From positions 19,793-83,792 of the forward strand of contig DBDU01000015.1 of NCBI GenBank assembly GCA_002293725.1: a stretch of DNA of 64,000 bases. Direction: 5' to 3'. The position numbers and the translations under genes are program-made. Shown piece by piece: positions 2,888-61,603 of the stretch (positions within the stretch are counted from its first letter, which is position 1; every line of letters begins with the position of its first letter). Below the pieces are notes generated by a model, which made no database searches, was not told the DNA's origin, and saw only the letters and a list, made by a program, of their open reading frames with translations. This DNA is from Patescibacteria group bacterium UBA924. GTDB lineage: Bacteria > Patescibacteriota > Microgenomatia > UBA1400 > PJMF01.

Positions 2888-2956
2888 CGCGGGGTAGTGT
2901 ACGGTGCACGTGGGGCTCATAATCCCACAGGCCGGGTTCGACTCCCGGCCCCGCAA
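2888..2956 (+). tRNA. tRNA with CAT anticodon, initiator-like (C1:A72 mismatch); compact D-arm
   Basis: Cloverleaf traced by hand: acceptor 2888-2894/2949-2955 (6 GC pairs plus C1.A72 mismatch), anticodon stem tgggg/tccca with loop cTCATAa, T-arm ccggg-ttcgact-cccgg; three G:C pairs in anticodon stem; no encoded CCA. Confidence 0.7.
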
Positions 2957-2964
2957 CATTTAAC

Positions 2965-2994
2965 CAAAAAACCACCTTTTTAGGTGGTTTTTTG
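2965..2994. terminator. Bidirectional intrinsic terminator (tRNA on +, SP-repeat protein gene on -)
   Basis: aaaaa-accacct-tttt-aggtggt-tttttt: 7-bp perfect stem flanked by A-run and T-run. Confidence 0.6.
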
Positions 2995-3011
2995 TACTTA
3001 TTGATCTCTAC

Positions 3012-3596
3012 TTATCCTTTTCTTTTGAATCGTGCAAAAAAGGTCGTTACTTTTACTTTTAATCTTGGATTACTCTCCACTACGAACCATCCCACTGGTG
3101 CCCCTACACCAATCAACACACCTAAAACCAAGAGTACAAGAATCGTCGGAAACTCTCTCTTTTCCCCAGTGTTTGTAGTCGGTGATGCTGAGGGTTCAGG
3201 ACTGGTGGAAGGACTAGGACTCGCCTCTGGAGATGGTGTCTGAGAAGGTGAAGGCGAAACACTTGGCGAAGGAGTCGGCCGCGGAGTTGGTCTGACTGAT
3301 GCTCTGACTGTAGGACTAGGACTCACAGCTGGACTGGGTGATGGCGAGGGTGACGGTGACGGGCTGGGTGATGGACTAGGGCTGGGACTTGGAGAAGGAC
3401 TAGGTGAAGGAGACGGAGATGGTGAAACGGAAGGCGATGGCGAGGGTGAAGGACTCGGAGAGGCTTCTGGAGAGGGAGTTTGGGCTGCCAGAGGAACCAA
3501 AAGAGCAGCTGTAATCGTCAGAAACATCCACAGAGGAAGTATCACCAAGAAGAACCGAGAACCTTTGATCATTGTTTGAACAGTATACCCTATCAA
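3012..3596 (-). CDS. Secreted (Ser-Pro)n repeat protein with C-terminal TM anchor and basic tail
   Basis: 194 aa; N-terminal signal-like hydrophobic segment, ~40 consecutive SP dipeptides, then TNTGEKREFP-hydrophobic helix-RLKVKV...KRKG; encoded by imperfect hexanucleotide DNA repeat at ~3240-3480. Confidence 0.5.
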   Translation of the reverse strand: MIGYTVQTMIKGSRFFLVILPLWMFLTITAALLVPLAAQTPSPEASPSPSPSPSPSVSPSPSPSPSPSPSPSPSPSPSPSPSPSPSPSPAVSPSPTVRASVRPTPRPTPSPSVSPSPSQTPSPEASPSPSTSPEPSASPTTNTGEKREFPTILVLLVLGVLIGVGAPVGWFVVESNPRLKVKVTTFFARFKRKG

Positions 3597-3607
3597 TTTC
3601 CGTACAC

Positions 3608-4315
3608 TTACTTCTGTAGCGACATCAAGGCATCTACAAACTGCTGTGGTTCACTAACTTCTTGTGCTTTATACACCCCCATCAATAGCTTTCGCACATT
3701 CGCACTCAGTGTGCTCTCTAAAATATAAATGGGTCGTTTTTCGTGTAAAGCGTGGTTCGCTGTACTCATAGAACCACTCTGTTCTCTCGATACACCGGAA
3801 ATTAACACTGCTTGGCTCAGACCAACGGTAATTCTGTTACGAACCAAGGGCTTTCTGATACTTTTCTGATCATCTGGGATAGGAGGATACTCAGAAACGA
3901 TCGCCGTACCTGGTTGGCGAACCTGTAACATCTGTTGAGCAATACTAAGGTTGGCGGGAGGATCCATTCGATTAATTGACGTAGGAAGTACTCCAACCGT
4001 ATGAGCGTTATTTAACGCCACACGATGACTTTGTGCGTCTACTCCTAAAGCCAAGCCCGATACGATTACTAGAGGTGTTTGAGCAGTATCTTGATAGGCA
4101 ACACACACTTTCTCTAAAAAGACGGCTAAGTGACTTAAAATTTCTGGTGGTACTTCTCGGGAACCGATACTGGCCAGATGAAAGAGCTCAGGAACAACTC
4201 CTGATCCTCGGACCCACAACGATGTAGGCGGCTGCTTAATCGTAGCTAAACGTGCGGGATACTCCCTATCTGTAGGCGTGACGTTCCGTATGCCTTCTGG
4301 AATAATCATATACAA
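3608..4315 (-). CDS. dprA: DNA processing protein DprA/Smf (short form, Rossmann domain only)
   Basis: 235 aa; IVSGLALGVDAQSHRVAL...GVLPTSIN...YPP motif pattern characteristic of DprA. Confidence 0.6.
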   Translation of the reverse strand: MYMIIPEGIRNVTPTDREYPARLATIKQPPTSLWVRGSGVVPELFHLASIGSREVPPEILSHLAVFLEKVCVAYQDTAQTPLVIVSGLALGVDAQSHRVALNNAHTVGVLPTSINRMDPPANLSIAQQMLQVRQPGTAIVSEYPPIPDDQKSIRKPLVRNRITVGLSQAVLISGVSREQSGSMSTANHALHEKRPIYILESTLSANVRKLLMGVYKAQEVSEPQQFVDALMSLQK

Positions 4316-4357: not shown

Positions 4358-7300
4358 TTACACAGCCGCAAATGGGTTGGTAATAGTGGTCATCTCAATC
4401 GTCAGAGGCTTTGCTCCAACCGCAGCTGTCACCATCGACATGGTACCAGCCTTTGCTTCTTTCCACACCATGTTGGGTGAGATGACGTTGATTCCGTACT
4501 TCCCTTTTGGAGCATAGAGCTCGAAGTTCCCATGTGCATCAGACTTGCTAATTGCAACGACACTTCCATCCTGACGTGTTAGCACAATCGTGGCGTTAGC
4601 TATCCCGCGTCGATCGCCATCGGCGATGATTCTTCCTTTAAGGGTCGGTTTCTTAAAGAGGCTGACTAACTTGGGCAGGAGTACTACGGCATACACAACC
4701 AGAATCAAACCATTTATCACGGTTGGGGCAATCCAAAATGCCAGGATTGAAAGTGCTGCGAGTGGATAAACTGCCCACTGTAACCAGTGTAATGTTCTGT
4801 TGAGTAACAACAGCAAGGAGTACTTCAACGAACCACCTTTATCGCCGAGTTTGTTGTCCATTGGAACCAGGACCGCTTGAGATTGTTTAGCTGAAGCAAT
4901 CCCCAACACTTCCCCTTTATAGAAGTCTTTGAAAGAAAGGTGTGCAGGTCGTTGTAGCTTAGTTGGAAAGACATGACCATCATGTCCAACTGTCATCGTA
5001 TACTCGCCTTTTGGCAAGAATGGCTCTAGGTAGACACCATACATGTCAGAAACAAGTGAGACAAATGGGGCTCCAAGTTGATTCTTTCCTTCATAGACAG
5101 AGATAGCCGCGAATGGAATTGGACTACCATTCTTTGTCTGATGGACAAAACCTTTTCGTTGTTTCGCAGGTAGCACCCCAGCCGTGCGGAATAAGTTCAG
5201 CAAAGTGCGTAGATTCAGTGCGGCCATAATTCCAGCTTGTGAAGCAACGGCGAGGGCTAACAACCCGACCACTGCGAGTTCAAGCGCTGCAGCGGCAGCT
5301 AGCCCAATTTTGGGAAGGGTTTTACTTGCTTGGATGGCACCACTAATAAGCGGGGTTGACCAAGGTAGGCGTTCTTGCAAGGCTCGTGCGATCTGCTGCA
5401 CTTCTGCTGGTGCATCTAAAACAGTGACAGTGATCTTTTTAGTGACTACCTCATCTCCTTTGCGGGCGGTAATCGTAATTACTGTTGTATCAAGAGGGAA
5501 GAACTCAAAGCTGCCATTGGGCGAGATCGTTCTTGTTTCTGGATAGTCGATAGTCACCTCATCAGCATCAGGAATGTTCCAAGAGATCTCAGCTTTTTGA
5601 CCGCGAACAATAGTTTGATCTGCTGATGAGACGATCCCAAATGAAGCTGGAACTGGCGTTGCACTAGGGTTAGCTAGGCCACCACCGGCCCCTGCTGTAG
5701 CGGAAGGATCAACTGAAGATGTCGGTGTCGCAGATGCATCTGGTGTGGGAGAAGGACTACTAGAAGTTCCTGAGCTCAACTCTCCTTCGACTTTAATTTC
5801 CAGCGATGCTACTGCTGATCCATACGGACCTGTTCCTGTAATTGTGTAAGTGGTTGTTTCAGTTGGATGCACATAGAAAGTTCCAGTTGGCGCACTCAGC
5901 TGATTATTTCCAGGGTTAATGACAAAACTAGTTAAGTTACTTGAAGCCCAGTGGAGCTCAACTATCTCTCCTTTTTGAATCTTAAACTTACTCGCTGAGA
6001 AGCCCAAGTACGGAGACGGTAAACTTGCACCGGACGTAATGGTGATCGTGCCAGATTCTTGCGTAAACGTTCCATCAGTGACTCGAATTTTAAATGTTCC
6101 CGTCTTGTTAATTTGCACACCCGAGGCTGTGCCTGTTCCATCGTTAATGGCAAGATTGGTAACATTTAAGCCATCAGTAGGGTTCCCTGTTCCAGTATCA
6201 ATCAATGTGAAAGTAACATTGCCATCATAGTTAGGATTTTTGTAGCCAAGGACATCAATGCCTTCTACGGTTACTGAAAATGAGGCGTTGGTAGTCGTAG
6301 CATTTGTAGATGGGGAAACTGATAATCCGGTAGTTGTAGTTGCCAACTCCTCTTCTGGGTAACCAGCATAGGATAAGGAGTAAGAGGTTAGTACTGGTGT
6401 GGCATTGTCTACCTCATACAGCTCAATCTTAAACTTGACTCGATAGTCACTTTGCTGCAACTGCTGCAACTGTCCCAGGGTAACTTCTTGCCACGTTACG
6501 CCGCCATCCGTCGAGACATAGTAACGAATTGGATCACCAGGTGCGGCATACGCTTGGGGAATAAGATGTTCTCCCACAGCTGCCATAAATGAGAAGTTAC
6601 TGCCACCAACTCCGCTGGCATCTGCGATTGGAGCACTAGCATTTGCTTCGGCCACAAAGTTATCTACTACTAACTGTTGAGGTGGACGGGTAGGAATCGC
6701 AACAGCCGCACCACCGTCTACCCAACCGCGTGTCATCGCGGACTTGTAAAAACCTTGATTTTTATTGACGCTATATAAGGTGCTGTAGTTATCCAGGTAT
6801 GTCCAAGCGTTACTTGGGCGGACACCCCCCGTTAAGTCAAACTCAATGAATGTATCGTCAGTTAAGTTTGTATAGGTATCGTTAAAGTTCAGATAAACTG
6901 GGATACTTCCCTCTGTATTGAGCAACAGCTGATCTCCCACTCCGTTTTGACCTTCGATGTACTGAATACCATAAATATTGCGGTAGCCAATTTGGGCAGG
7001 ATAAGCCAGCTGAACAATAGTGTCATCGTCCCAGGAGTATGGATCGTCGCCATCATCGGTGATCACGAATAAACGGCCATTTGAGTTGTTGGCTGTACCA
7101 AAGATTAAACGACCATCAGGATCAAGAATCATTCCGGTAAAGACGTTTTGGTAATCACCATCAGTCGTTACATCCACAATATCGTCACTGGGATCGGAAG
7201 GTGTATTGTTATCTCCCCAAACGTAAAAGCCATCAAAGTAGCTTCCCGCATAGACTCTGTTTTCTGCTGAATCAATCAGAGATCCCAAAAAGGATTGGGA

Positions 7301-9667
7301 GTTCAGATCACTCAGCGCGTAATGAGTGAAGACGTCATCACCTTGGTCCATGTGTGTTCCATTGAGATCAAGGTAAGCAAGATTAGAGTTGCCACCTGTA
7401 GGTGTGGTTGTCATGTAAGCGCCGAGGCGACCACGCTCAAAATCCAACCGAATTGCGCCAATATCTGTATAGGTAAAGTTTTGGAAGCCCACCCCATCGG
7501 TCAGGTTAAAGACATATAACCGATAAATATCTGACATCCATAAATACTTCTTTCCTTCATAAACTCCCAAAGCAAAGCCGTTCAAGTCTGAGCTCATTGC
7601 ATTTACGCCAAACAACGCAGGATAGTTAAATAAAGTACTGACCTCTGTAGTTTTGTTGTATTGGTAAATCTGTCCGCCTAAGTAGTACCACAGCATATTG
7701 CTATCTTGGGGATCTTGCCAAACTTCCCACAGCCCACGGCAGTCTCCATAACGAGGACAGATGTTGGTGTTATTCAGGAGTTGACGAGAAACGGTAATAT
7801 CTTCTTTTAAGCGAAGCTTTCCATTTCCCCAAATAATATTTGAGGAGCTAGGGATGTCTTGGTTGGCAGTACTTTCGAAGTTCTCCTCAAACGTAAACTC
7901 ACCTGGCATTGGATCTTCAGGATCAACAATCGTGAATGTGTCATCAACTACTGCTGAGCGTCCTGCGCCATCAGTACATCGCACATCGACGGTGTGGACT
8001 CCCAAACCCAGTTCAGGCAGATCAACAGAGAATGTTTCTGTGTAGCTGTCATCATAAACACCGCCATTGGGTAAGGTGATCAGTTCATACCCGCCATCAT
8101 CAATCTGATACTCTAACTCACTGATAAAGCTGTTCGTATCTCGATAGGTATTATCAGTACAGCTTCCAGTAATGGTCGGCGTCCTATCGGTTAATGGATC
8201 TGGAGTAACCTCGTCCATACTGACGATAGGATCAGAGTTATCCAGTGCATCAATAATGACAGGGTCGTAATCAGCACTATAGTTGCCAGCTTCATCCTCT
8301 ACACGGAAGTTAACTAAAATCACTCCATCAATATCACCAAAAGAACTTAAGTCCACAGTGAAGTCAAAAGTCTCTTCTGTGGCACCAAATGAAGAGTCAA
8401 CAGGCTGAACCGGGTGATCTGCATAGAACTGCAAAGTTCCTTGAACAACGTGGTAGATCTCATACGCAGCACCAACAATGCCCCGATCATCGGTACAGGT
8501 AATACCCTCGTACTCCAAAATCTTAGAGTAGTGTGGACTTGGATGATTAATAAAACCTTCGGTACATGAAGGAGCTATAGGATCGATATCGACTTCAAAT
8601 GATTGCGAGGCCTCATTGCCCCACATATCACCCGCATAGAAAGTAATAGTATGCGGACCAGCGGAAGGTGAGAACTCAATCTCCCACTCCTTATACGTTT
8701 CAGAAGACTCGTCTTCATCAATCAGTACATAGTTTCTTCCCTCATAGTCAACTTCGTACTGGATGTAACTAATGTAACTGGCATCACTGACCGTTCCTGA
8801 GTACTCCAGTGGATTTTTAGTCACGCCTTCTGGCGCCTCAGTAAAGTTAAAGATGGGCAGGTCTTCTTCATACTCATAATCTTCACCACCACCATCTTCT
8901 AGGTAGGTAAAGTAGTAAGACTGCTGTGACTCATTACCATACGGGTCTCTGGCATAGACAGAAAACTCATGCTCGTTTCCATCGAAAAGATCAGACGGGC
9001 CAGGATAACCGCTTGAAAGATTTAAATCGTAGTATTGGTGGTCATAGTTACTACTGTTTGGATAAACATCCCAAGGTTGTCCGTCAACATAGACGACTAC
9101 TTCTTCTAAATAGTCATCGTAGACTTGAAAGTAATAGGGCATTGAAGTTGATTCAACTTCTCCCTCAGTGTACGTATCAAAGTAAATAACGGGACTACTT
9201 GCATCTGGATAAGGCTCAAATGAGAACTGTTCAGAAATTTCTTCGTCTGCCTCTGTCGTGGCATAGAAAGTAATAGTATGAGGATTAAAGTCAGCGTACG
9301 CTCGTTGATCTAGATAGAAATAAACATACTCATCAATATCATTAAACGGACCAGAATCACTAAACTCTTCTAAACTTACTCGTCCACTGTTATCAATTTC
9401 GTAGGAAATATCGACGATCGCCGACTCATCACTATGGACTGAGAAGTTATAGTAGTACTCCCAATAGCCGTTATTGATATCTGCACCATAAGTATTTGGG
9501 CTCTCTCCGCTGGAATAAAAATCAAAGTAGACCACTGAGTCGGCCATTGCTTGGTGCGTAGCTAGCAAAGTAGCCGCTGTAACAGCAACAAAGATGAAGG
9601 CTGCAGCAAGTAATTTTGCTTGGAGACTGAAGAGTTTTTGTCTAAAGATAAGCATAAGCCAAAACAC
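4358..9667 (-). CDS. Giant cell-surface protein (1769 aa) with signal peptide, multiple Ig/beta-sandwich-like regions, S/T/P-rich linker, C-terminal multi-TM anchor and carboxypeptidase-regulatory-like (CarbopepD_reg) beta-sandwich
   Basis: N-terminal hydrophobic signal; acidic Y/D/E-rich repeats; low-complexity SSGTSSSPSPTPDASATPTSS linker; 3 predicted TM helices near residue 1480-1600; C-terminal GRIIADGDRRGIANATIVLTRQDGSVVAISKSDAHGNFEL motif typical of CarbopepD_reg domain; all +strand ORFs inside are shadows. Confidence 0.65.
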   Translation of the reverse strand: MFWLMLIFRQKLFSLQAKLLAAAFIFVAVTAATLLATHQAMADSVVYFDFYSSGESPNTYGADINNGYWEYYYNFSVHSDESAIVDISYEIDNSGRVSLEEFSDSGPFNDIDEYVYFYLDQRAYADFNPHTITFYATTEADEEISEQFSFEPYPDASSPVIYFDTYTEGEVESTSMPYYFQVYDDYLEEVVVYVDGQPWDVYPNSSNYDHQYYDLNLSSGYPGPSDLFDGNEHEFSVYARDPYGNESQQSYYFTYLEDGGGEDYEYEEDLPIFNFTEAPEGVTKNPLEYSGTVSDASYISYIQYEVDYEGRNYVLIDEDESSETYKEWEIEFSPSAGPHTITFYAGDMWGNEASQSFEVDIDPIAPSCTEGFINHPSPHYSKILEYEGITCTDDRGIVGAAYEIYHVVQGTLQFYADHPVQPVDSSFGATEETFDFTVDLSSFGDIDGVILVNFRVEDEAGNYSADYDPVIIDALDNSDPIVSMDEVTPDPLTDRTPTITGSCTDNTYRDTNSFISELEYQIDDGGYELITLPNGGVYDDSYTETFSVDLPELGLGVHTVDVRCTDGAGRSAVVDDTFTIVDPEDPMPGEFTFEENFESTANQDIPSSSNIIWGNGKLRLKEDITVSRQLLNNTNICPRYGDCRGLWEVWQDPQDSNMLWYYLGGQIYQYNKTTEVSTLFNYPALFGVNAMSSDLNGFALGVYEGKKYLWMSDIYRLYVFNLTDGVGFQNFTYTDIGAIRLDFERGRLGAYMTTTPTGGNSNLAYLDLNGTHMDQGDDVFTHYALSDLNSQSFLGSLIDSAENRVYAGSYFDGFYVWGDNNTPSDPSDDIVDVTTDGDYQNVFTGMILDPDGRLIFGTANNSNGRLFVITDDGDDPYSWDDDTIVQLAYPAQIGYRNIYGIQYIEGQNGVGDQLLLNTEGSIPVYLNFNDTYTNLTDDTFIEFDLTGGVRPSNAWTYLDNYSTLYSVNKNQGFYKSAMTRGWVDGGAAVAIPTRPPQQLVVDNFVAEANASAPIADASGVGGSNFSFMAAVGEHLIPQAYAAPGDPIRYYVSTDGGVTWQEVTLGQLQQLQQSDYRVKFKIELYEVDNATPVLTSYSLSYAGYPEEELATTTTGLSVSPSTNATTTNASFSVTVEGIDVLGYKNPNYDGNVTFTLIDTGTGNPTDGLNVTNLAINDGTGTASGVQINKTGTFKIRVTDGTFTQESGTITITSGASLPSPYLGFSASKFKIQKGEIVELHWASSNLTSFVINPGNNQLSAPTGTFYVHPTETTTYTITGTGPYGSAVASLEIKVEGELSSGTSSSPSPTPDASATPTSSVDPSATAGAGGGLANPSATPVPASFGIVSSADQTIVRGQKAEISWNIPDADEVTIDYPETRTISPNGSFEFFPLDTTVITITARKGDEVVTKKITVTVLDAPAEVQQIARALQERLPWSTPLISGAIQASKTLPKIGLAAAAALELAVVGLLALAVASQAGIMAALNLRTLLNLFRTAGVLPAKQRKGFVHQTKNGSPIPFAAISVYEGKNQLGAPFVSLVSDMYGVYLEPFLPKGEYTMTVGHDGHVFPTKLQRPAHLSFKDFYKGEVLGIASAKQSQAVLVPMDNKLGDKGGSLKYSLLLLLNRTLHWLQWAVYPLAALSILAFWIAPTVINGLILVVYAVVLLPKLVSLFKKPTLKGRIIADGDRRGIANATIVLTRQDGSVVAISKSDAHGNFELYAPKGKYGINVISPNMVWKEAKAGTMSMVTAAVGAKPLTIEMTTITNPFAAV

Positions 9668-30622: not shown

Positions 30623-31762
30623 CGTTCAAATACGGTCACCCGCTAATTTAAAAAAGAGTGGTAGATCAAGGTTTGGATTTTTTGTTAACGATAAGCTTGA
30701 GAACCCATTTAAGTTCGCAAACTTCCCTTCACAATCAGTAAAAGGTTTTAGCCTTCTCCTCAAGAAATATCCGTTTAACCACAATGTAGCGTGTTCAAAT
30801 GAATCAAATCCTTTAATACTCTTTAGTCGGCCTTGAAGGTGGGAGTTAAAACTCTCAATTAAGTTAGTGGTAGTAGGGATTTCTTCATCATGCAGATACC
30901 CCAGCAATAGATCTTTTTTTGCTTCTAAATCAATTAAAATTGACGTGCAAAGTCTATCAGGATAGTGTATCTGAATAATTTGGGTAAGCTCTTGAATAAA
31001 GCTTAGTTCAGAATATCGATGCTTAAAAAGTCGACAGAGCGCAAAAAAAAATGGTCGATAGTGATAGTTAAGGTCTAAACGAAGTAAAAAGCGGATTGAT
31101 CGAAGATAATGCAGTTGACAGAGCTGGACAACTGCACCTGGGAAAACCTCCAAACAAGCCCTGTAAATATTACTATTGTCATCACAGACCAAAACGCGTA
31201 AGGGATAGTTGAGCTCTTTTAACTTCTGAAAAAAAGCTAGACAGGTCTGATAACTCTCGGCAGTTGAAAGCAGATAGTAGGGAATGTCGTGGCTGGCGTA
31301 GTCCAAGCCATACAGAACAGGAATTTTTCTCTTGTATCCTTTTACAGCTAGATACTTTCCATCTACTAAAAGGATGCCAGAGAAATTAGTGCAGTATGTC
31401 CGAGTAATTTCTGCACAGTCTGGAAGTTGTTTTAAAACTTGCGCACAGTAGTTATAAGCACTACCGAGGCTAATGTGATATTGGTTTGAAAGCGCACGAA
31501 AAGGAACTCCATCAATGTGTGCCCACAGAAGTCTGTACTTTTTAAGCGATGCAGCCCTATTAATTTGAAACCAACGATTACATTTTTGGCAGTGATACTT
31601 TATCTTTCCACGCCGAACACCTTTGCGAAAAGTTACTGAAGATTTACATGATGGACATCGAGGGTTTTTTTCATCTGTAAAGCATACTTCACCTAGTCAA
31701 CAGCTGTTTTTCTCTTGGTCGATAAGCGAAAATTGAAGTGTTTTGTGACCAATTTTGAACGG
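30623..31762. mobile_element. Insertion sequence (~1.14 kb) with 18-bp imperfect terminal inverted repeats, IS1595/IS1-like
   Basis: Left end CCGTTCAAATACGGTCAC (30623-30640) vs reverse complement of right end CCGTTCAAAATTGGTCAC (31745-31762), 15/18 identical; encloses one transposase reading frame; sits in intergenic space between smpB and a convergent gene. Confidence 0.6.
30626..31696 (-). pseudogene. IS transposase (Zn-ribbon N-terminus + DDE domain) lacking a canonical start codon
   Basis: Stop-to-stop frame of 357 codons: N-terminal CPSCKSSVTFRKGVRRGKIKYHCQKCNRWF zinc ribbon, then LLVDGKYLAVKG (D1), VLVCDDNSNIY (D2), ESFNSHLQGRLKSIKGF (E) DDE-like signature; no ATG/GTG/TTG in first 127 codons (tracked ORF begins at an internal TTG). 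Confidence 0.55.
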
Positions 31763-40575: not shown

Positions 40576-42141
40576 ATGAAACGCGCGTTTGCCCAACGTC
40601 AAATCCCGACTTTGCTAGGCTTAGGAGTATTAATTGCTTCTTTAGTGGGTGGTATTGCCTTCATTGGTACTGGAGGTGGCGTTTTTGCACCCCGAGCAAC
40701 TCCACAAACTACACCTAAAAATCTAAAAATCACCAATGTCAAAGACACTGGACTGACGATCTCGTTCATGACCGACGAAGCTACAGCTGGCTTCGTCAAG
40801 TATGGTAAGTCTGCTGACAGTATGACTACCCAAGCTAGCGATGATCGAGACCAACTCGCTGGGACGGTTAATCAATACAGTAGTCACTACATCACTTTGC
40901 GAGATCTTGATCCAGGAACAGAGTACTTCTTCACCGTCGGGACAACCTCCGTCCCCAAGTTTGATAATAATGGCGTACCTTTTACCGTAAAAACTGCTAA
41001 TCGAGGTGGAAGCCCCACCGCAGCCAAAACTGCGTATGGAACTATTAATAACTCCACTGGCGCTCCAGCTGATGGAGCTATCGTTTACATGACGATGAAT
41101 GGCGTAGCAGAGCTTTCAGCATTGGTCAAAGGTTCTGGTAGTTGGGCAATTCCACTCTCTAATGCTCGTACTGCAGATCTCTCTGGTTACGCGAACTTGC
41201 AGCCAACAGATACTGTTCAAATCTTTGTTCAAGGTACCCAAATTAACGAAACTGGCGCAGCTCAACTCCCTGTTTCAGATACACAACCAGTTCCCACCAT
41301 TACGTTAGGGAGCGGGAGTGCCGCCACCGACACTGGCCTTCAGGCAGAATCAACGCAAACAGCTCCTGAAGAGTTTACAACGGCTTCCGAAGACTCTCTG
41401 GCTTCCTTATCAACAACCGAGACAGATACAGAAAATACTGGGGCAGGTCCAATAACTGACCCTAATGAACTTACTGCAATTGCAATGCGCTCACCTGTTC
41501 CTTCTACTCAACCTGAGATGGAAACCCAAAATACTCAAATGGTTGATACTGTGGATCTGACAATTCCCGAACAGCAAACGGTAGAAACAGGACAGCCAAC
41601 AATCACCGGTAAGGCAGCTCCTAACATTCTTATTACTGTTCAAGTAAACTCCGAGACCCAGATTACAACTCAAGTTCAAACAGACGCTGAGGGAAACTTT
41701 GTCTTGCCTTTAAGTAACGGTGATCAAACCTTAGAGCCTGGTGAGCACACCGTGACTTATAGTTATACTGATCCAGTTACGGGAGAAGAAAAAAGCGTTA
41801 CAAGAACTTTTTTTGTTTCAGGGCCAGGAAATGATACTGCACTACTGGCTCAAGCCAATCCTAGTCCAACCCCATTTGGCTCTCAAAACCCATTCACTAT
41901 TCCGTCACCTTCTCCATCACCAAGCCTGTTACCGTCGCCAACAGCTTCGGCTAGTGCCACGCCTTCAGCTTCTCCAAGAGTTGTCGTGCCGGCGACCGAC
42001 AGTGCTATTCCAAGATCTGGGTCTACAAGTGTAACAATAGCGTTAATTGTGGGTGGGTTCTTCATGATTGGCTTAGGCGTATGGAGTTATCGCTATAACT
42101 TGCGACAGGCGCTTATTGATTCAGAAGAAGACTCCGCCTAA
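40576..42141 (+). CDS. Surface protein with N-terminal anchor, FN3/purple-acid-phosphatase-N-like domain, Ig-like domains, Ser/Pro-rich stalk and C-terminal TM anchor
   Basis: 521 aa; LKITNVKDTGLTISFMTDEATAGFVKYG...YSSHYITLRDLDPGTEYFFTV FN3-like; ...IPSPSPSPSLLPSPTASASATPSASP... then TIALIVGGFFMIGLGVWSYRY. Confidence 0.4.
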   Translation: MKRAFAQRQIPTLLGLGVLIASLVGGIAFIGTGGGVFAPRATPQTTPKNLKITNVKDTGLTISFMTDEATAGFVKYGKSADSMTTQASDDRDQLAGTVNQYSSHYITLRDLDPGTEYFFTVGTTSVPKFDNNGVPFTVKTANRGGSPTAAKTAYGTINNSTGAPADGAIVYMTMNGVAELSALVKGSGSWAIPLSNARTADLSGYANLQPTDTVQIFVQGTQINETGAAQLPVSDTQPVPTITLGSGSAATDTGLQAESTQTAPEEFTTASEDSLASLSTTETDTENTGAGPITDPNELTAIAMRSPVPSTQPEMETQNTQMVDTVDLTIPEQQTVETGQPTITGKAAPNILITVQVNSETQITTQVQTDAEGNFVLPLSNGDQTLEPGEHTVTYSYTDPVTGEEKSVTRTFFVSGPGNDTALLAQANPSPTPFGSQNPFTIPSPSPSPSLLPSPTASASATPSASPRVVVPATDSAIPRSGSTSVTIALIVGGFFMIGLGVWSYRYNLRQALIDSEEDSA

Positions 42142-44967: not shown

Positions 44968-46064
44968 ACAGCAGGAACAGTTCTGTTATGAAATGTCCGA
45001 AACGAGTATTTTGCTAGAAGGTCTGAAAAACGTACCGTCTTGGAGTATCCCGCCAAAGTTTTTCGCCGATAACGGAGTAATTGCGGAAACATGTGAGTGG
45101 TTTCGCCAATGATCTTCGGATACGTCAACATCCCATTCGTTACACTACCATATAGGCAAAGCCAGACTTGCACCAGCAAGATATTAAACATATTTCTGAA
45201 AATTACTGTCACTGGCCAACAACAGATAATTACCCACAACAGATTTCGATATGTGTGATAAAGCGCGAAGCGATTTTTTCTTCCTCCTGAGCTCAGTGAG
45301 CCATGATGGTAGACGTTTAAGTTTCTATCTTTCTTAATTACTCCTCCCATCATGCAGATCCGAAGGCTAAGATCAACATCTTCAAGATAGTAAAAGTAAA
45401 GCGGATTGAAAAAGTACCCATACTGCTGAGTAAGTTTTTGAATAAGTGAAAACCTGATAGCTATACACCCTGCGGTAGCCAAAGTTGTATGAATATCTTC
45501 ACTTCTACAGTTTTTAGCATAACCAGAACGAAAGTACTCAACGCCAAACGACTCTATCTGTTGAGGGTTTGATGCTTCGAAGATACAAGGTGCGTAAACA
45601 TCAACTTTTTCTTGCTTTTGCTGACTTAAACTAGCCAGTCTTTTTATAAAATCTTTTCTTAACCAGGCATCATCATTTAAAAGGAGTACCCAATCTATTT
45701 TTGCTGGTTGATGAAGTAACAGCTGGATAGCCTCATTATTCAACTCACCAAATCCAAACCCGGAAGGTGCCGATACAAAGATAACGGTCGAAAAACGTTT
45801 TTTGATAACTTGCGTCGGTTTTTTATCAGAAACGATATACGTCGTAATCTTAGCTACTTTTGATTGCTCTTGAATACTCTTTACACAAGTAGTCAAATGA
45901 GCCAAGTGTTTGGGTTCAAGTGTTGAAGGGATAATGACTGCCACATGAAGATGGGGCATAATACGCTGTTGTATGGTCATCGCTCGCAAAGAACTTTTTT
46001 CGCCACTTTTTCTTTCTACTTGCTTTGGATCACTGTACTTTCTGCTCTTATTTTTTTCTGACAC
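44964..46064 (-). CDS. Glycosyltransferase family 2 (GT-A)
   Basis: 366 aa; VAVIIPSTLEPKHLAHLTTCVKSIQEQ... and LLLNDDAWL DXD motif. Confidence 0.6.
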   Translation of the reverse strand: MSEKNKSRKYSDPKQVERKSGEKSSLRAMTIQQRIMPHLHVAVIIPSTLEPKHLAHLTTCVKSIQEQSKVAKITTYIVSDKKPTQVIKKRFSTVIFVSAPSGFGFGELNNEAIQLLLHQPAKIDWVLLLNDDAWLRKDFIKRLASLSQQKQEKVDVYAPCIFEASNPQQIESFGVEYFRSGYAKNCRSEDIHTTLATAGCIAIRFSLIQKLTQQYGYFFNPLYFYYLEDVDLSLRICMMGGVIKKDRNLNVYHHGSLSSGGRKNRFALYHTYRNLLWVIICCWPVTVIFRNMFNILLVQVWLCLYGSVTNGMLTYPKIIGETTHMFPQLLRYRRKTLAGYSKTVRFSDLLAKYSFRTFHNRTVPAV

Positions 46065-48189
46065 TCAGTACTTACTGTGGTTTGGTCCAGCCTTGCTGAT
46101 ATTGTACTTAGTTACAGCGTATTACAAGCTCAGAACGGACGCAAAATCTTTCCAAGCGGGACAAAGCTTTATTTCGATCGGCTGCTTGGCAGTCGTGCTT
46201 CTTCTGTTCGCCCTTATTCCTGTGAGCATCTCTATCCCACTGGCCATTGGCCGGTGGCTGGTGCTCGCCTTGGCAGGAATAAGCTTTAGTGTTTTTTATG
46301 CCGTACCGCTTTTCAAGTCCGAAGAACAAAGTGTTTTTCTTAAAACCATCTTATGTGTCAATGTCTTATTCGTTTGTCTCAGCATCTTCTTTTTGTCATT
46401 CGATGGCTTAGTTGATTTTCTGCCCTCTCGAAGTTTGGTTAGTTTCTTAGTTGGTCATAACCATGCATACATCCTCTTCCTGTGTGGATTTCCTTTAGCA
46501 ACGTACTTTGCTCTAACAAGTAAAAGGAACCTCGTCTGGATTGTATTGATGTTTCTCTTCTTTTTAGGCACAGTGCTTTCTTTTAGTAGGTTTGGCCTTC
46601 TCTTTCTGGCTATTGAGATAGGATATGTTCTTACCGTTTTCAAATGGAAAACAGCAAAAGTAGTTCAAAAAATCCTTCAGCTTTTTTTAGGTTTGAGCCT
46701 TTTATACGGAGCCGCCCTTTTCTTTTTTTCCGCCCTTCCCCAACTCAGTTTTGGCCAGAACTGTAAGTCTCCCATCTTTCAAGATCAACTTTGCAAAAAC
46801 ATTCAGGCTGATATGCGTCTTGAATACTGGCGCCAGGCGGCACGAGTTATTTCAGACCATCCCTTAATTGGTGCCGGCGGCAGTGCTTTTCGAGTGTTGT
46901 CATACAAGTATCGGAAAGATGAGTTCTCATTCACTTCTACACCACATAATGAGTATTTACAGCTGATTGTCGAGTACGGACTAGTAGGAATGGGAATCGT
47001 AGTTCTTTATCTTTGGGCTCTTTTCTCCCTGCTCAGAAAGTGGAAAACACAGAATGCTCTTACTCAAACATTAATCTTTATTTTGTGCATCGTAAGTGCA
47101 GATGCTCTGTTTAACTTTAACTGGGCATTTCCTGGCTATACACTGCTACTCGCCACACTTTTTGGTATCACCTTTCGACGAGCTGAAATAGCCAAGAATT
47201 TTGTGCCACCACTTCGCTTCTCACCGCTGCTTCTTTTAGGAGCATTTTTAATAACTTCTCTGCCAGTATTTTGGCTCAGTGGACGCTTCATTCATGCCGA
47301 GCTTTTACTAGGAAACAACCTGACACAGTACGTGAAACGGTTTCCTTTCTTAATTGACAAGTCTTTGACAGCCGTCCGTAGTACCGACGTCCCACTAGAA
47401 GTAAAGGAAGATCTTTTCTCTCTTTATCGGAATCATCCTGCATTTACGGATGTGGCTCTTGACCTTGAGCTTGATCCTCAGAAAAGAATGGCTGTGTTTG
47501 CTCGCACTGTCCCCCTAGATCCATACGATGCCAACCTACGTATTCAATACATGATACTTGCTGCGCAAACGGATCAACCTGATATCGTGATCGAGAATGC
47601 CGAAGCGCTATTAAAGATCTTCAATGTTCATGAACGCCATGAGATCAAGTTTTCCTATCCTGACTATCTAGAACGGCTGATCACCTATGCAAACCAACTT
47701 GCCAAAAATGATCCATCAAAAGCACGAGAGATTACGATTCTTGCGTATCAGTTTGAACCTTGGCGAGTGAATGATGTCTCTACTCTTTTTTTTCAAGAAC
47801 CGAGTGCTTTCTCAACACGTGACGTTACTCTCATCTTAGAGTCCACACCTAAGGTAGAACTATGGAAGTATGCAGAGACTCTGCCAGCTTGGTTACTAGA
47901 AAAAATGCTTACCTCCATTGAAGAAGAGAACTTTTCTATGCTCCCACAGAACCTTACTTTGCTACTGACTCGCACGAACATTGGCCCGCATGTGATCTGG
48001 GGAAAAGCATCACAAGCCTTTACAGAGAAGTTGAATAAACTAGAAGTACACAGTCCCGAGACTTTCTTACAAAAGCAGCAGATCATCAAATCCTGGCAAG
48101 AAAGCCTTGCAACCATCAAGAAATTTGGTACTGTTGGCGATACTACTATTGAAGAGTGGAATACACAGGTAGAGTCGTTTGCCCATTAA
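45973..48189 (+). CDS. Wzy_C-domain (O-antigen ligase / PglL-type O-oligosaccharyltransferase-like) membrane protein with ~300-aa C-terminal helical (TPR-like) domain
   Basis: 738 aa; ~12 TM; periplasmic loop with conserved NCKSPIFQDQLCKNI Cys pair followed by ...TSTPHNEYLQLIVEYGLVGMGIV... (Wzy_C HxxEY...G motif). Confidence 0.6.
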   Translation: MVIARKELFSPLFLSTCFGSLYFLLLFFSDTQYLLWFGPALLILYLVTAYYKLRTDAKSFQAGQSFISIGCLAVVLLLFALIPVSISIPLAIGRWLVLALAGISFSVFYAVPLFKSEEQSVFLKTILCVNVLFVCLSIFFLSFDGLVDFLPSRSLVSFLVGHNHAYILFLCGFPLATYFALTSKRNLVWIVLMFLFFLGTVLSFSRFGLLFLAIEIGYVLTVFKWKTAKVVQKILQLFLGLSLLYGAALFFFSALPQLSFGQNCKSPIFQDQLCKNIQADMRLEYWRQAARVISDHPLIGAGGSAFRVLSYKYRKDEFSFTSTPHNEYLQLIVEYGLVGMGIVVLYLWALFSLLRKWKTQNALTQTLIFILCIVSADALFNFNWAFPGYTLLLATLFGITFRRAEIAKNFVPPLRFSPLLLLGAFLITSLPVFWLSGRFIHAELLLGNNLTQYVKRFPFLIDKSLTAVRSTDVPLEVKEDLFSLYRNHPAFTDVALDLELDPQKRMAVFARTVPLDPYDANLRIQYMILAAQTDQPDIVIENAEALLKIFNVHERHEIKFSYPDYLERLITYANQLAKNDPSKAREITILAYQFEPWRVNDVSTLFFQEPSAFSTRDVTLILESTPKVELWKYAETLPAWLLEKMLTSIEEENFSMLPQNLTLLLTRTNIGPHVIWGKASQAFTEKLNKLEVHSPETFLQKQQIIKSWQESLATIKKFGTVGDTTIEEWNTQVESFAH

Positions 48190-56994: not shown

Positions 56995-57852
56995 TTACAG
57001 AAGCTCTATATCCTCAATCATAGGATAGATGCTATATGTTTCTGTTGTAAAGGGAAGCCCAGCATTGATACTGACGCGGTAGTTATCCAACATTACGACG
57101 TCCTTGCCATTGACTCGTTTGACTGCAACTTCCATTTCCATCGCTATATCTTGATATAGGGGGTTATAACGCACATGGAAGTTACCTAAGTAATCTTCAG
57201 TAATCTGTTTGGCTTGAGTTACTTTTACATCAGTAACTTTCATAATTACATTCCCGTGCGAGTCGTACATCGCGTCGCCCACTTTAATCTTCCGAGCCAG
57301 ACTGGGCTCTACACCTCTACCAATAGTTTTCACTCGAACCATACGGTCCTCCACATTGAGCTTTACTATATTGGGGGCATCGATAACAAAACCGTCAAAA
57401 GTAACATTATTCAAGTTAAAACGCATAGGCGTACCGTACATCAGTGTTTTACCGCGGGCGGAGTAGGTTTGAGTACGCGTGTCATATGTTGCCCGAACGC
57501 GGAGTGTTAGGTACACAGTTTTTGTTTCTGGAGTAACAGAGAATGACTCTACGTTAGTGATTTCTGTCACGATACGGCCAATCACGTCTCGCTCGAAGTC
57601 TCCAACATGAAACTGCCAAGCATAGATATTTCGCGGTTCTCGATATGCTGAAAGTACTTCTTGGTCTGTCACTTTAACTCGGATATCGATGTACTGCGCC
57701 CGTCGGTAGAAGAAAAGGAAGAAGCCAACTAAAACAACGACTACCGTGATACCAATCACTGCATCAAACCAATGAATTTTAGGAATTTTCTTTAATAGTT
57801 TTTTCATCTTTTCCCTTAACAGACACCGAAAGATAGTACCAATATCCCCCAA
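56995..57852 (-). CDS. Hypothetical membrane-anchored protein
   Basis: 285 aa; single N-terminal TM; start codon abuts stop of SGNH gene. Confidence 0.3.
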   Translation of the reverse strand: MGDIGTIFRCLLREKMKKLLKKIPKIHWFDAVIGITVVVVLVGFFLFFYRRAQYIDIRVKVTDQEVLSAYREPRNIYAWQFHVGDFERDVIGRIVTEITNVESFSVTPETKTVYLTLRVRATYDTRTQTYSARGKTLMYGTPMRFNLNNVTFDGFVIDAPNIVKLNVEDRMVRVKTIGRGVEPSLARKIKVGDAMYDSHGNVIMKVTDVKVTQAKQITEDYLGNFHVRYNPLYQDIAMEMEVAVKRVNGKDVVMLDNYRVSINAGLPFTTETYSIYPMIEDIELL

Positions 57853-59356
57853 ATCCTAAAACTATTCCCAAGAAGGGAAACTCAACAATACCAATATGAG
57901 GTAGAAAGATCCAGAATACTATGTTGAGTAGTAAACCCCCAATATACCCCAAACGAAAGTATTTGTGTGAAGAGTATTTTCTGCCTACTACTATGGCAAA
58001 ACGAAGGAGATATAAAAACGGAAGGAGCAGAATGATCAAGCCCACCAGACCAATTTCAAGCCAAAGTTGCAGAAAAGTCATGTGGACCACTGCTGGAAAA
58101 ACGCTCATTACTCCATCTGGAAAAAGACGATGCAGTACATACTCATTTGTTCCTACACCATAGCCAACCAGAGGACTGCCAATGATAGCTTCGATTGCTT
58201 CTTCAAACATACGTAACCGAATCGCCAAACCAGCTCCCTCATAACCAGTATTAACACTCAGAATAACTCTAGGAATTAAGCTAAAGGCACTCAAAATAAA
58301 GGCAGAAAGCGCCAAAAAGGCAATCCTTTTTATACCAACTTTTCTTAATAAGAAGAGTACTTCAGCCGAGTAAACTCGCAAGTTGAGTAACACTACTAAT
58401 GCGGAACCAATCATCACTGATCGGCTTTGGGTAAGGATGATCGTAATAAAGCCAAAACATGCTATGACGCTATAAAGAATAGATTTCTTTTGTAAAGCAT
58501 ATGGAAGAAGTAAAGAGCTTAAGAGACCAACCACTAGCGCCAGTTGGTTCGCCATCATAAAGGTTGCCATTACGCGAAAAACTGCGTTGTTTTCATCGAG
58601 GCCTGTTGCAAAAGTACCAGCAGAAAATGCTTCAAATGGCAGTCCCACACTACGCTGAAAGATGAGCTGTAACATACTGACTACAAACTGGGTACAGAGC
58701 ACCCCGCTGATGGTAATCATTAAGTATTTTTTAAAACGAGGCTGGGTCATTAATCCAAGGCAAATACCGGTTGCCACGAAGTACATAAATGAGTACTGCC
58801 ATAACCAAACTAAAGAGAGCTGAAAGTACGGCGAGAACCGACTACTGCTATATAGTCCAATTCCCAAAAAGGCAGTCCAAACTATAACCATTCCTAATAA
58901 CACTCGGGTCATGTAGGTCGTTAACTGTTTTCTCTTTAGGATTAGCTCGCGAAAAAATGCGCCAAAGCTCAAGATAAAAAAGAAGCTTGCTAGATGATAG
59001 TAATACGTAATCGAGTAACCAAAGCTATAGACCCTTTCTGCAATCTCACTACCTCGAATAACCTCGATGCTATACCCCTTATTTGGGTGAACGAACTGGA
59101 GTGTAAAAAGAAATGTCAAAAAAAAGCCAGCAAAAGCGTTTTTAAGCCTATAGGAAATAATGCTGGCAACGATGAGGTATAGTACAAAGAATGACCGAAT
59201 CCCGCCGAAAAAAGAAACCGAGGAGATCAACACCGCGCCTGCAAAAAGAAACGCCAAGGTTAAAGAAGAGCTTGCCCAAATGTTACGTGCTTGTACGAGG
59301 CAGAAATGCAGAAGCCTTTGTTGAGCGTTGTCTTGAGTCAATTTTGAACCAAACAT
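57779..59356 (-). CDS. Polytopic membrane protein, Wzy-like oligosaccharide repeat-unit polymerase (putative)
   Basis: 525 aa, ~12-14 TM, large periplasmic loop; no soluble domain. Confidence 0.4.
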   Translation of the reverse strand: MFGSKLTQDNAQQRLLHFCLVQARNIWASSSLTLAFLFAGAVLISSVSFFGGIRSFFVLYLIVASIISYRLKNAFAGFFLTFLFTLQFVHPNKGYSIEVIRGSEIAERVYSFGYSITYYYHLASFFFILSFGAFFRELILKRKQLTTYMTRVLLGMVIVWTAFLGIGLYSSSRFSPYFQLSLVWLWQYSFMYFVATGICLGLMTQPRFKKYLMITISGVLCTQFVVSMLQLIFQRSVGLPFEAFSAGTFATGLDENNAVFRVMATFMMANQLALVVGLLSSLLLPYALQKKSILYSVIACFGFITIILTQSRSVMIGSALVVLLNLRVYSAEVLFLLRKVGIKRIAFLALSAFILSAFSLIPRVILSVNTGYEGAGLAIRLRMFEEAIEAIIGSPLVGYGVGTNEYVLHRLFPDGVMSVFPAVVHMTFLQLWLEIGLVGLIILLLPFLYLLRFAIVVGRKYSSHKYFRLGYIGGLLLNIVFWIFLPHIGIVEFPFLGIVLGFGGYWYYLSVSVKGKDEKTIKENS

Positions 59357-60039: not shown

Positions 60040-61603
60040 CCTTCGCTACTCTCGATTGTTAAGTCTTCCTCTTATTGGAGTTAGTCTTTACTTTTTACAA
60101 CTCTTCCTCTTACGAGTTGGTTTTCTCCATACAGTCTGGATCTCTCGGAAAGCAGTTCCTGTGCGCACACGGTTGCTTCATCTATTACAACAAAAAGCTA
60201 GCGTAATTTTTTGCCAAGCATGGCAGCTCGGCGAGCAACTCAGACCTCTTCAACATAACTTTGTTCTAGTTTACCGAGAGTCACATCCCAGAAATTTAGA
60301 CTTATCAGACCTTTACTGTCTACAGTGGTCTCTAACATTAGCTCAGGCTGTCACTCCAGAGAGTATCTCTTCCCTAGGTGAACTACTTCCCAAAAACTAC
60401 CCAGTCTGGCGGACAGTAGCTCTTTCCGTCCACCAAGAGCTATCTGTGCAGTGTGATTTTATCGAGCAAACAGTAAAAGAGTTGGTTCGTAGAAAGTTTG
60501 TTGTCGTACTCGTTAGTCATGTTAAACAACCATCTCACATTAAAGAACGATACACCGATCAAGCTAAAGTTTTACTGATTGAAACCCCACCACCTTCTTT
60601 CTTTAGCCATCTTCCCTATCGTTTACAACTCTCTGCGACTAACATTTGGAAGATCTTCATCACCTTGCGCATTAAGTACATCCTTCAGCTATTTCGCAAC
60701 CCGCTGTTGTGGTGTTTTGACCCTGATGACATTCAGTCACTTGAGTTATTCCCTCCTCAAATCCCTACTTTATATGACTGCGTTGACTTCTATACCAGTC
60801 TCGATGAAAAACTAAAGAAAAAAATTGAAAAAAACCAGCAGAAACTGCTCCGACGAGCAACTTTTGTATGCGTTAACTCTCGAACCCTAGACAAGATTCA
60901 CAAGAAGATCAGAAAAGATGTCAGACTTGTCCCACAAGGTTTTGATCGGTCTTCATTTTTAACAGTAGCGAGAAAGGCAAAAAGTGAGCAAGTCAGAGCA
61001 TTTTTTTCGGCACTCAGAGAGCGACAAAAAAGCTACAGAGGAGTTGTAACCTATGTCGGGACATTATCCTACCGAGTTGACTACCAACTTTTAATTCAGG
61101 TTATTCGTTCCACTCCTAAACTTCTTTTCTGTTTACCACAAACGGTACTGCCTTGGCAGGCTGAAGATGAAACGACACTTTGGCAACAGTTTCTCCAGGA
61201 ACTCAAAGCCCTTCCGAATGTACTGTGGTTTCCTCAACTCAAACGAGTCGAAGTAAAAATGCTTTTAGCTCAAAGTAATGTTGGTTTTATTCCTTACAAC
61301 ACACGATTTCTCTTTAACCGCTACTGCTTTCCAATGAAACTCTTTGAGCACTTTAGCGTTGGCATTCCTACTGTTTCTACTCCTATCGAAGAGTTAAAGT
61401 ACTACGCTGATTACGTCAAAGTTGGAAGAGACAGCCTCCAAGTGCGAAAACACCTACTAGCCTCAGTTAAAAAACCACTTAGTTCAGTACAAAAAAAAGA
61501 ACTAGAAAAACTCTGTCAACAACATAGTTGGCAGGCAAAGGTTGGCACAATCGTTAATTTGTTGAATGAAGAGTACTACTCAAAGTCTCAATTTTTGCTT
61601 TAA
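59990..61603 (+). CDS. Divergent GT4-like glycosyltransferase (GT-B C-terminal domain)
   Basis: 537 aa; ...NRYCFPMKLFEHFSVGIPTVSTPIEEL... EX7E-like motif. Confidence 0.35.
   Translation: MRLRYVERHHMRQSAYNLRYSRLLSLPLIGVSLYFLQLFLLRVGFLHTVWISRKAVPVRTRLLHLLQQKASVIFCQAWQLGEQLRPLQHNFVLVYRESHPRNLDLSDLYCLQWSLTLAQAVTPESISSLGELLPKNYPVWRTVALSVHQELSVQCDFIEQTVKELVRRKFVVVLVSHVKQPSHIKERYTDQAKVLLIETPPPSFFSHLPYRLQLSATNIWKIFITLRIKYILQLFRNPLLWCFDPDDIQSLELFPPQIPTLYDCVDFYTSLDEKLKKKIEKNQQKLLRRATFVCVNSRTLDKIHKKIRKDVRLVPQGFDRSSFLTVARKAKSEQVRAFFSALRERQKSYRGVVTYVGTLSYRVDYQLLIQVIRSTPKLLFCLPQTVLPWQAEDETTLWQQFLQELKALPNVLWFPQLKRVEVKMLLAQSNVGFIPYNTRFLFNRYCFPMKLFEHFSVGIPTVSTPIEELKYYADYVKVGRDSLQVRKHLLASVKKPLSSVQKKELEKLCQQHSWQAKVGTIVNLLNEEYYSKSQFLL

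Follow-up and report, generated by a model that had tools for sequence, protein, structure and literature searches.

What does a bacterium make of a protein built largely from alternating serine and proline, and is such a repeat an unstable stretch of DNA or a conserved part of an envelope protein? The question is raised by a locus at 3012-3596 in a 64,000-nucleotide stretch of the Patescibacteria group bacterium UBA924 genome (contig DBDU01000015.1, positions 19,793 to 83,792; the whole stretch is called the window below), where the minus strand encodes a 186-residue Ser/Pro-rich protein. The protein is, on the whole, of an ordinary kind and belongs to a small family that is undescribed. We lean, by a modest degree, towards reading it as a fixed-length, membrane-anchored and wall-spanning Ser/Pro stalk that is probably glycosylated and would be held by a specific transmembrane (TM) module.

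Layout and predicted role of the Ser/Pro protein

The minus-strand open reading frame (ORF) spans the whole of 3012-3596 if a TTG codon at 3596 is used, which adds eight residues in frame, but the ATG at 3572 is the likelier start and is the one chosen by public gene calls. The identical 186-residue product is called on 16 public contigs, and the ORF is kept in diverged strains and in species-level orthologs. From its N-terminus, the protein consists of MIKGSR, a hydrophobic core running to PLAA, a Gln, the Ser/Pro-rich tract, the segment TTNTGEKRE, the helix FPTILVLLVLGVLIGVGAPVGWFVV and the tail ESNPRLKVKVTTFFARFKRKG (Table 1). The single ORF, the Ser/Pro tract, the hydrophobic helix with its basic tail and the lack of an LPXTG sequence, all described in the initial annotation of the locus, are confirmed.

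Hydropathy analysis reveals two hydrophobic segments in the protein, and a single-sequence AlphaFold (AF2) model, which supports helices and disorder only, contains three helices (Table 1), the last two of them separated by a break at N168. Residues 31-140 have no secondary structure in this model, with a predicted local distance difference test (pLDDT) value of ~50, and no folded domain is seen. The signal segment of all orthologs closes with [LVI]-x-A followed by Q, and a signal-peptidase cut is predicted before the conserved Gln31. The resulting ectodomain would comprise 110 residues, 70% of them Ser or Pro, including 38 Ser and 9 Thr. The tract is predicted to be extended or disordered, with a length of ~33 nm if it adopts a polyproline-II conformation (about 30-35 nm extended). 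On the other side of the TM helix, the whole tail, including the ESNPRLK motif, has 21 residues and a net charge of +6. Taken together, these features support a secreted, membrane-anchored envelope protein with an exposed Ser/Pro stalk.

In the mechanism that we propose, the Sec signal peptide would be removed by the cut before the conserved Gln, leaving a thread of ~110 residues, 70% Ser and Pro, outside the cell. The single TM helix and the basic cytoplasmic tail would keep this thread in the membrane as a type I, single-pass protein. Having no folded domain, the thread, possibly O-glycosylated, would most likely be a fixed-length stalk or brush element spanning the wall, and at ~30-35 nm it would be long enough to cross a Gram-positive-type wall. 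The organism evidently builds a peptidoglycan wall, since two class A penicillin-binding proteins and MurJ are encoded in the window.

The staphylococcal MSCRAMMs of the Clf/Sdr group have a comparable organization, with a long Ser-containing dipeptide repeat that links the exposed part to the C-terminal anchor, and their Ser-Asp repeat is both a wall-spanning stalk and a glycosylation substrate. The weak NCBIfam matches of the Ser/Pro protein are solely to this group (ClfA, 11 bits; SdrC, 9.7; SdrD, 8.8), for cut-offs of 1150-2500. However, the protein lacks a ligand-binding domain, an LPXTG sequence and any link to a sortase, its dipeptide is Ser-Pro and not Ser-Asp, and its helix, apparently retained, carries a motif of its own. 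With hidden Markov model (HMM) scores below the cut-off and no folded domain, it falls outside both the Clf/Sdr proteins and the serine-rich repeat glycoproteins. Its succession of signal peptide, unstructured Ser/Thr/Pro-rich ectodomain, helix and short tail also recalls eukaryotic mucins and the (Ser-Pro)n sequences of plant arabinogalactan-proteins, and Pfam matches the C-terminus of one ortholog, below threshold, to the mucin Epiglycanin_C region (E=0.016). This likeness is an analogy only, the match being far below threshold and the organisms and their glycosylation machinery unrelated.

Compatible with a stalk is the further possibility, tentative and in our estimate rather unlikely, that one of the Wzy_C proteins encoded in the window (Table 1) acts on the tract as an O-oligosaccharyltransferase and makes it mucin-like by heavy O-glycosylation. 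The ectodomain is predicted to be exposed and unstructured, is Pro-rich and carries the 38 Ser and 9 Thr in its 110 positions; in these respects it resembles the flexible Ser/Pro-rich low-complexity regions of PglL substrates such as Neisseria AniA, and PglL-type enzymes carry Wzy_C and modify flexible low-complexity regions (PMC3643930). Three Wzy_C proteins are encoded in the same genome region, together with genes of glycan synthesis at 42-64 kb. This cluster (42154-63761) has the appearance of a glycan-assembly locus, with Bac_transf, at least seven glycosyltransferases of the GT1, GT2 and GT4 families, a methyltransferase, the three Wzy_C proteins and a 981-residue PQQ-propeller/apiosidase-like protein. 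Against this possibility, the Wzy_C genes are not adjacent to the Ser/Pro gene but 42-58 kb away, inside what is apparently a polysaccharide cluster, and their action on proteins is only putative here. The Wzy_C domain alone cannot separate O-oligosaccharyltransferases from O-antigen ligases (PMC3643930), and it is the only family that Pfam reports for these three proteins. The suggestion in the initial annotation that the Ser/Pro protein is a candidate substrate for Wzy_C-dependent O-glycosylation is nevertheless plausible.

A conserved C-terminal module and its possible partners

Searches with the full-length protein were uninformative, being swamped by unrelated Ser/Pro-rich proteins to the point that the query's own cluster was not returned, and the query was therefore switched to the non-repeat C-terminal 55 residues. 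With this fragment, HMMER found only four real relatives among 1.84 billion representative proteins, none of them from this organism; these counts are limited, as gene callers often miss these genes. A profile search of a 90%-clustered database with alignment A1 gave just two of the known relatives. A degenerate DNA pattern of the motif detected four loci in the JGI metagenomes and nothing in 185,579 species-representative genomes of GTDB. Scans for relatives of DprA, the product of the neighbouring gene, in genome and metagenome contigs returned nothing, and exact-protein look-ups of neighbours and cluster members were used instead.

Alignment of six C-terminal modules reveals the invariant core G-V-x-x-G-x-G-x-P-x-G-W-x-x-x-[ED]-S-N-P-x-L-[KR], which becomes G-V-x-x-G-V-G-x-P-x-G-W-x-V-x-[ED]-S-N-P-x-L-K in the five full-length orthologs that consist of the stalk and anchor only. 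In the numbering of the window protein, the invariant columns of the helix are G151, V152, G155, V156, G157, P159, G161 and W162, and they are followed by S167, N168, P169, L171 and K172, which are invariant in the stalk-only orthologs; the domain-bearing relative P0136 ends the motif with an Arg. The invariant residues are confined to the inner half of the helix and the positions just beyond it, with none conserved on the outer side, and the motif is followed by a basic tail of 18-27 residues across the orthologs. Two relatives, P0133 (388 residues) and P0136 (267 residues), carry a Cys-containing immunoglobulin-like (Ig-like) domain and a Ser/Thr/Pro linker on the same anchor, and the gene neighbourhood of P0133 is broadly alike (GroEL, the gene itself, DivIC, XerC and FtsH). 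Searched with a profile of the module, each locus yields exactly one copy, as does the window.

Pfam and NCBIfam hold no model for the module, and neither the whole protein nor its C-terminal 58 residues match LPXTG, PEP-CTERM, PGF-CTERM or GlyGly-CTERM at E<=10. Among six C-terminal fragments submitted to Pfam none scored above threshold, four having no match and two having sub-threshold matches to unrelated families. To judge from these comparisons, the module is a conserved and previously undescribed membrane anchor, in which the GVxxGVGxPxGW face appears glycine-zipper-like. The family likewise appears to be a narrowly distributed, undescribed Patescibacteria family known from a handful of metagenomic lineages, with a single-copy stalk-plus-anchor gene of which the window would hold the domain-less form.

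Because the conserved part is inner-helical and cytoplasmic, and the tail is long and partly amphipathic, the module seems to be a retained anchor or docking element and not a cleaved signal. Small-xxx-small motifs are an established feature of helix-helix packing, and the GVxxGVGxPxGW face, together with the [ED]SNPxLK turn, would form a retained anchor packing against itself or against a partner helix. The best candidate partner would be a giant envelope protein of 1769 residues, as judged from probable co-transcription and repeated linkage. On the minus strand, the genes for the giant protein, dprA and, last, the Ser/Pro protein form a string with gaps of ~45 and ~35 nt, and in other lineages (loci L021/L032 and L023) the gene immediately upstream of the Ser/Pro gene likewise encodes an orthologous giant protein. 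A more specific proposal is that the module is a Patescibacteria-specific docking or sorting element tying a fixed-length, heavily O-glycosylated Ser/Pro ruler, or in relatives an Ig-like domain on a stalk, to this giant multi-pass protein; we regard it as quite unlikely.

Slightly less probable still is that the module is a new sorting signal, in which case a membrane enzyme would read GxGxPxGW or [ED]SNPxLK and, in the manner of sortase, exosortase or rhombosortase systems, transfer the cleaved protein to the wall or to a lipid. Such a signal would fit the tripartite layout of polar segment, helix and basic tail, which the protein shares with LPXTG sortase substrates, down to the Pro-rich segment in front. 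It would also fit the strong conservation of the module while the ectodomain varies between a bare stalk and an Ig-like domain with linker, as well as the Ser/Thr/Pro linker directly before it, as in PGF-CTERM and LPXTG proteins. PGF-, PEP- and GlyGly-CTERM domains similarly combine a short conserved C-terminal helix with basic residues, and in these substrates of archaeosortase, exosortase and rhombosortase a glycosylated linker rich in Thr, Ser and Pro often comes first, the haloarchaeal S-layer glycoprotein being one example. However, the motif recognised by known sorting enzymes is found at the outer edge; that of the CTERM domains is at the outer start of the helix and is followed by a tail of few residues, whereas conservation here is confined to the inner helix half and the cytoplasmic side. 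The sequence in front of the helix, TTNTGEKREFPT, contains no LPXTG-like pentapeptide, nor is any motif conserved at this position in the orthologs. A helix and a +6 tail are present; at 21 residues (18-27 in the orthologs) the tail is longer than usual, and it itself holds the conserved motif. Sorting tags usually mark many paralogs of a genome, whereas the module is single-copy at each locus and has its four relatives in the 1.84 billion proteins searched.

The target gives no match to Gram_pos_anchor in Pfam, to LPXTG in NCBIfam or to any CTERM model at E<=10. No Sortase domain occurs among the 46 ORFs of at least 150 residues in the window, and the conserved neighbours of the gene include no candidate enzyme. 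In the literature searched, sortase in Patescibacteria receives passing mention only. The sortase-type sorting signal proposed in the initial annotation thus finds neither an outer-side motif nor a sorting-domain match, and a retained anchor remains our preferred interpretation of the module.

The initial annotation had further proposed that a second protein of the window, encoded at 40576-42141 on the plus strand just after PilN and PilO, ends in the same way. This protein has fn3/purple-acid-phosphatase-N and Ig-like domains, and its C-terminus (~41990-42138) does contain a Ser/Pro-rich segment and a TM helix, so that the layout is shared in part. However, its tail YRYNLRQALIDSEEDSA has a net charge of -2, the module is absent, and the protein is missing from the best 30 matches of the target's C-terminal profile (down to E ~13). 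It has instead a signal of its own: of 120 homologs, 112 have [VILM]PxSG immediately before the helix. In the window protein this motif reads IPRSG, with a Pfam match to Gram_pos_anchor that stays below threshold (E=0.036), and JGI annotates one of the homologs as an LPXTG-motif cell-wall-anchored protein. The combination of [VILM]PxSG and TM helix, with polar or acidic tails, looks like a variant of the LPXTG sortase signal that is widespread in the lineage. The window would thus hold two distinct C-terminal signals, a sortase-like one on the second protein and a new, non-sortase-like one on the Ser/Pro protein. A conserved C-terminal motif does exist among the orthologs of the Ser/Pro protein in other metagenomes, but it is not of the sortase type and is not common to the second protein.

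Stability and coding of the Ser/Pro tract

The tract contains 32 Ser-Pro dipeptides in all, 16 of them in the longest uninterrupted run, with further runs of 5, 2, 2 and 2, fewer than the approximately 40 uninterrupted dipeptides first counted. The repeat is real and far beyond chance, though overstated in that first count. At the DNA level, it is much less regular than the protein suggests. The 16 Ser codons of the core run are a mixture of TCA, TCT, TCG, AGT and AGC, six of them being AGY, and the Pro codons use all four of CCA, CCG, CCT and CCC. On the plus strand, an AGY Ser codon and its Pro codon read GGN-RCT, and AGY and TCN differ at non-wobble positions. The longest perfect tandem of period six is 14 bp, as is the longest exact self-match (14 nt), and Tandem Repeats Finder at its lowest threshold detects two scraps only, at 3337-3362 (4.3 copies, 80% matches) and 3385-3411. 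The imperfect (GGNGAN)n tract proposed earlier is therefore not a uniform repeat, and the long perfect tandem run of a contingency locus is lacking.

We compared the length of the tract at three depths, namely within the same population, between diverged strains and between species-level orthologs. The full gene is present in seven samples (SRR2119805; JGI 3300005669, 3300006417 and 3300014773; ENA ERZ761604, ERZ761606 and ERZ761591) at 99.7-100% identity and with no gap. The diverged strains L018 (GCA_019454505.1, ~92% identical) and L020 (SRR8934087), reached via cluster members of DprA, differ from the window at 45 and 51 of 585 nt (7.7-8.7%), with zero indels. Relative to L018, the synonymous divergence (dS) of the tract is 0.30 and the nonsynonymous divergence (dN) 0.023, giving a dN/dS ratio of 0.075 (0.17 for the whole gene). 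With such values and no indels, synonymous turnover has been heavy, but length and Ser/Pro identity have been preserved. In the same comparison, the dS of the tract is approximately threefold that of the adjacent dprA (0.10), a difference that weak constraint on codons or locally biased mutation might explain. The species-level orthologs, recovered with the C-terminal fragment and the degenerate DNA motif, have predicted mature ectodomains of 110, 118, 111 and 119 residues in four lineages at 53-61% identity, and their tracts align with few gaps, keeping the landmarks A-[ST]-V-x-x-T-P-[RK] and P-S-V-x-P-S-P-S.

The only length variant that we found is in another lineage, where locus L032 encodes 195 residues (7279-7872) and L033 encodes 109 (582-917). 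The two contigs (Ga0163147 and Ga0163148) have flanks that are 99.97-100% identical; their only difference is the in-frame loss of 258 bp of the tract between dispersed copies of the 10-bp direct repeat TGCATCACCT. This is a deletion between short repeats and not hexamer slippage. In sample SRR2082602, two contigs have their ends within the tract, one at 3446 and one at 3478; they share an overlap of 33 nt and are both 100% identical to the window. We rejected these breaks as a sign of length heterogeneity, as the ends match the window fully and give no evidence of an indel. Nor are they due to repeated k-mers, because no exact repeat of the tract exceeds 14 nt; low coverage or a minor variant may account for them.

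A hypermutable simple-sequence contingency locus, with slippage-driven changes of copy number, is accordingly highly improbable here. The dipeptide repeat of the protein, the 258-bp in-frame deletion between two near-identical contigs of a related lineage and the two contigs ending within the tract could each suggest it. However, perfect hexamer tandems do not exceed 14 bp in a unit that is non-uniform even at non-wobble positions, the lone deletion is not a hexamer copy change, and no copy-number difference exists between close strains, either in the seven samples or against L018 and L020, at a tract dS of 0.30, with length kept across species. The slippage-prone length variation anticipated in the initial annotation is largely refuted for the window's species. 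The tract appears to behave as a length-conserved and genetically stable spacer, in which the repeat would be held by selection on the protein.

That the Ser/Pro frame is not the gene, the plus-strand Gly/Glu/Asp/Leu-rich ORFs (3480-3728 and 2992-3243) being real or the region non-coding, is barely credible: although gene calls for L018, L019, L020 and L023-L027 put ORFs on the antisense strand, and dN/dS is similar for both strands (0.19 antisense, 0.17 sense, third codon positions being common to both frames), the antisense reading is cut in two by stops and lacks a signal peptide, a helix and any conserved motif, whereas the sense ORF is unbroken in every lineage, has a signal peptide and encodes a non-repeat C-terminal 50 residues that are 42-62% identical in distant relatives despite diverged DNA. 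The dN/dS ratio was discarded as a strand test, being non-discriminating, and the strand was settled by the integrity of the ORF and the conservation of the non-repeat C-terminus, which argue decisively for the sense Ser/Pro reading as the true gene. Antisense calls that replace the Ser/Pro gene include those at 3776-4285 in L018 and 4589-4990 in L023, and elsewhere the gene is truncated to 34 residues. The exact 186-residue sequence is absent from a collection of 15 billion proteins. The family is under-counted in protein databases because callers pick the antisense frame or truncate the gene.

Gene neighbourhood and biological significance

The features of the Ser/Pro gene and of its surroundings are collected in Table 1. 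The symmetrical hairpin downstream of the gene is likely a two-way terminator common to the Ser/Pro gene and the convergent tRNA-Met gene. The short spacing from dprA suggests that the two genes are probably co-transcribed, and the order of dprA followed by the Ser/Pro gene is also found in L018, L020 and L030.

Table 1. Positions of the Ser/Pro gene, its encoded segments and related features in the window
Feature	Position	Strand	Description	Basis
Ser/Pro-stalk coding sequence	3012..3572	-	186 residues from ATG at 3572; stop codon 3012-3014	ORF list and translation
Predicted signal peptide, residues 1-30	3483..3572	-	MIKGSR, hydrophobic core, PLAA	Hydropathy peak at residues 4-32; AF2 helix 5-30
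Ser/Pro-rich low-complexity tract	3168..3482	-	105 residues; 39 Pro, 38 Ser, 32 SP dipeptides	
Core (SP)16 run	3330..3425	-	Scrambled synonymous codons	Codon list
Predicted TM helix	3078..3152	-	FPTILVLLVLGVLIGVGAPVGWFVV; invariant G-V-x-x-G-V-G-x-P-x-G-W	Hydropathy; AF2 helix 141-167
Predicted cytoplasmic juxtamembrane motif	3057..3077	-	ESNPRLK; family consensus [ED]-S-N-P-x-L-[KR]	Single occurrence in window
Predicted basic cytoplasmic tail	3015..3056	-	VKVTTFFARFKRKG; amphipathic end	Charge and hydrophobic moment; AF2 helix 169-185
Hairpin flanked by A and T runs	2965..2994	.	17 nt past the stop codon	Terminator scan
tRNA-Met	2888-2957	+	Convergent to the Ser/Pro gene	
dprA	3608..4309	-	35 nt upstream of the Ser/Pro gene	Pfam DNA_processg_A, E=2.5e-36
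Giant envelope protein	4358..9667	-	1769 residues; Ig-like, CarboxypepD_reg; several TM helices near the C-terminus	Pfam
Wzy_C proteins	45973-48189, 57779-59356, 61554-63761		738, 525 and 735 residues	Pfam; Wzy_C the sole family reported

Some of the related loci have additional genes in this neighbourhood. In L030 (520-6992), the genes next after dprA and the Ser/Pro ortholog encode bAvd, a reverse transcriptase and a 1558-residue fn3 protein, an arrangement that has the layout of a diversity-generating retroelement as judged from its genes. In L020 (3725-4420), a 231-residue gene with no recognised domain lies on the opposite strand between dprA and the Ser/Pro gene, and neither the window nor GCA_019454505.1 has it. 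Elsewhere in the window, a minus-strand ORF of 226 residues (30626-31306), in the stretch of lowest GC content (~0.40), matches only the C-terminal half of a Mutator-family transposase and is probably a remnant.

Several points weigh against a fixed-length stalk. The function is deduced from sequence only, and a bare-ended stalk has no obvious activity. The signal peptide may instead be an uncleaved second anchor, and the linkage to the giant protein may be mere conserved gene order among relatives. The conservation of length rests on few points, with five or six lineages known, and the 109-residue allele keeps just 33 ectodomain residues; as this variant persists, a long stalk is not strictly needed, at least for persistence in the population. 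With these reservations, a membrane-anchored Ser/Pro stalk of conserved length is the reading that we retain.

The envelopes of Patescibacteria are poorly understood and central to host attachment. The stalk-plus-anchor module is new to Pfam and NCBIfam, and automatic annotation often loses its gene to an antisense Gly/Glu/Asp frame. The locus also illustrates that a striking dipeptide repeat in a protein need not mean slippage-prone DNA when its codons are scrambled. The practical gains are modest, namely a profile for six-frame searches of the family and a candidate for glycoproteomics, with the conserved [VILM]PxSG sortase-like signal of a pilus-adjacent fn3 protein family as a by-product. 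If docking of the module to the giant protein were true, it would represent a new envelope-organising complex in ultra-small epibiotic bacteria.

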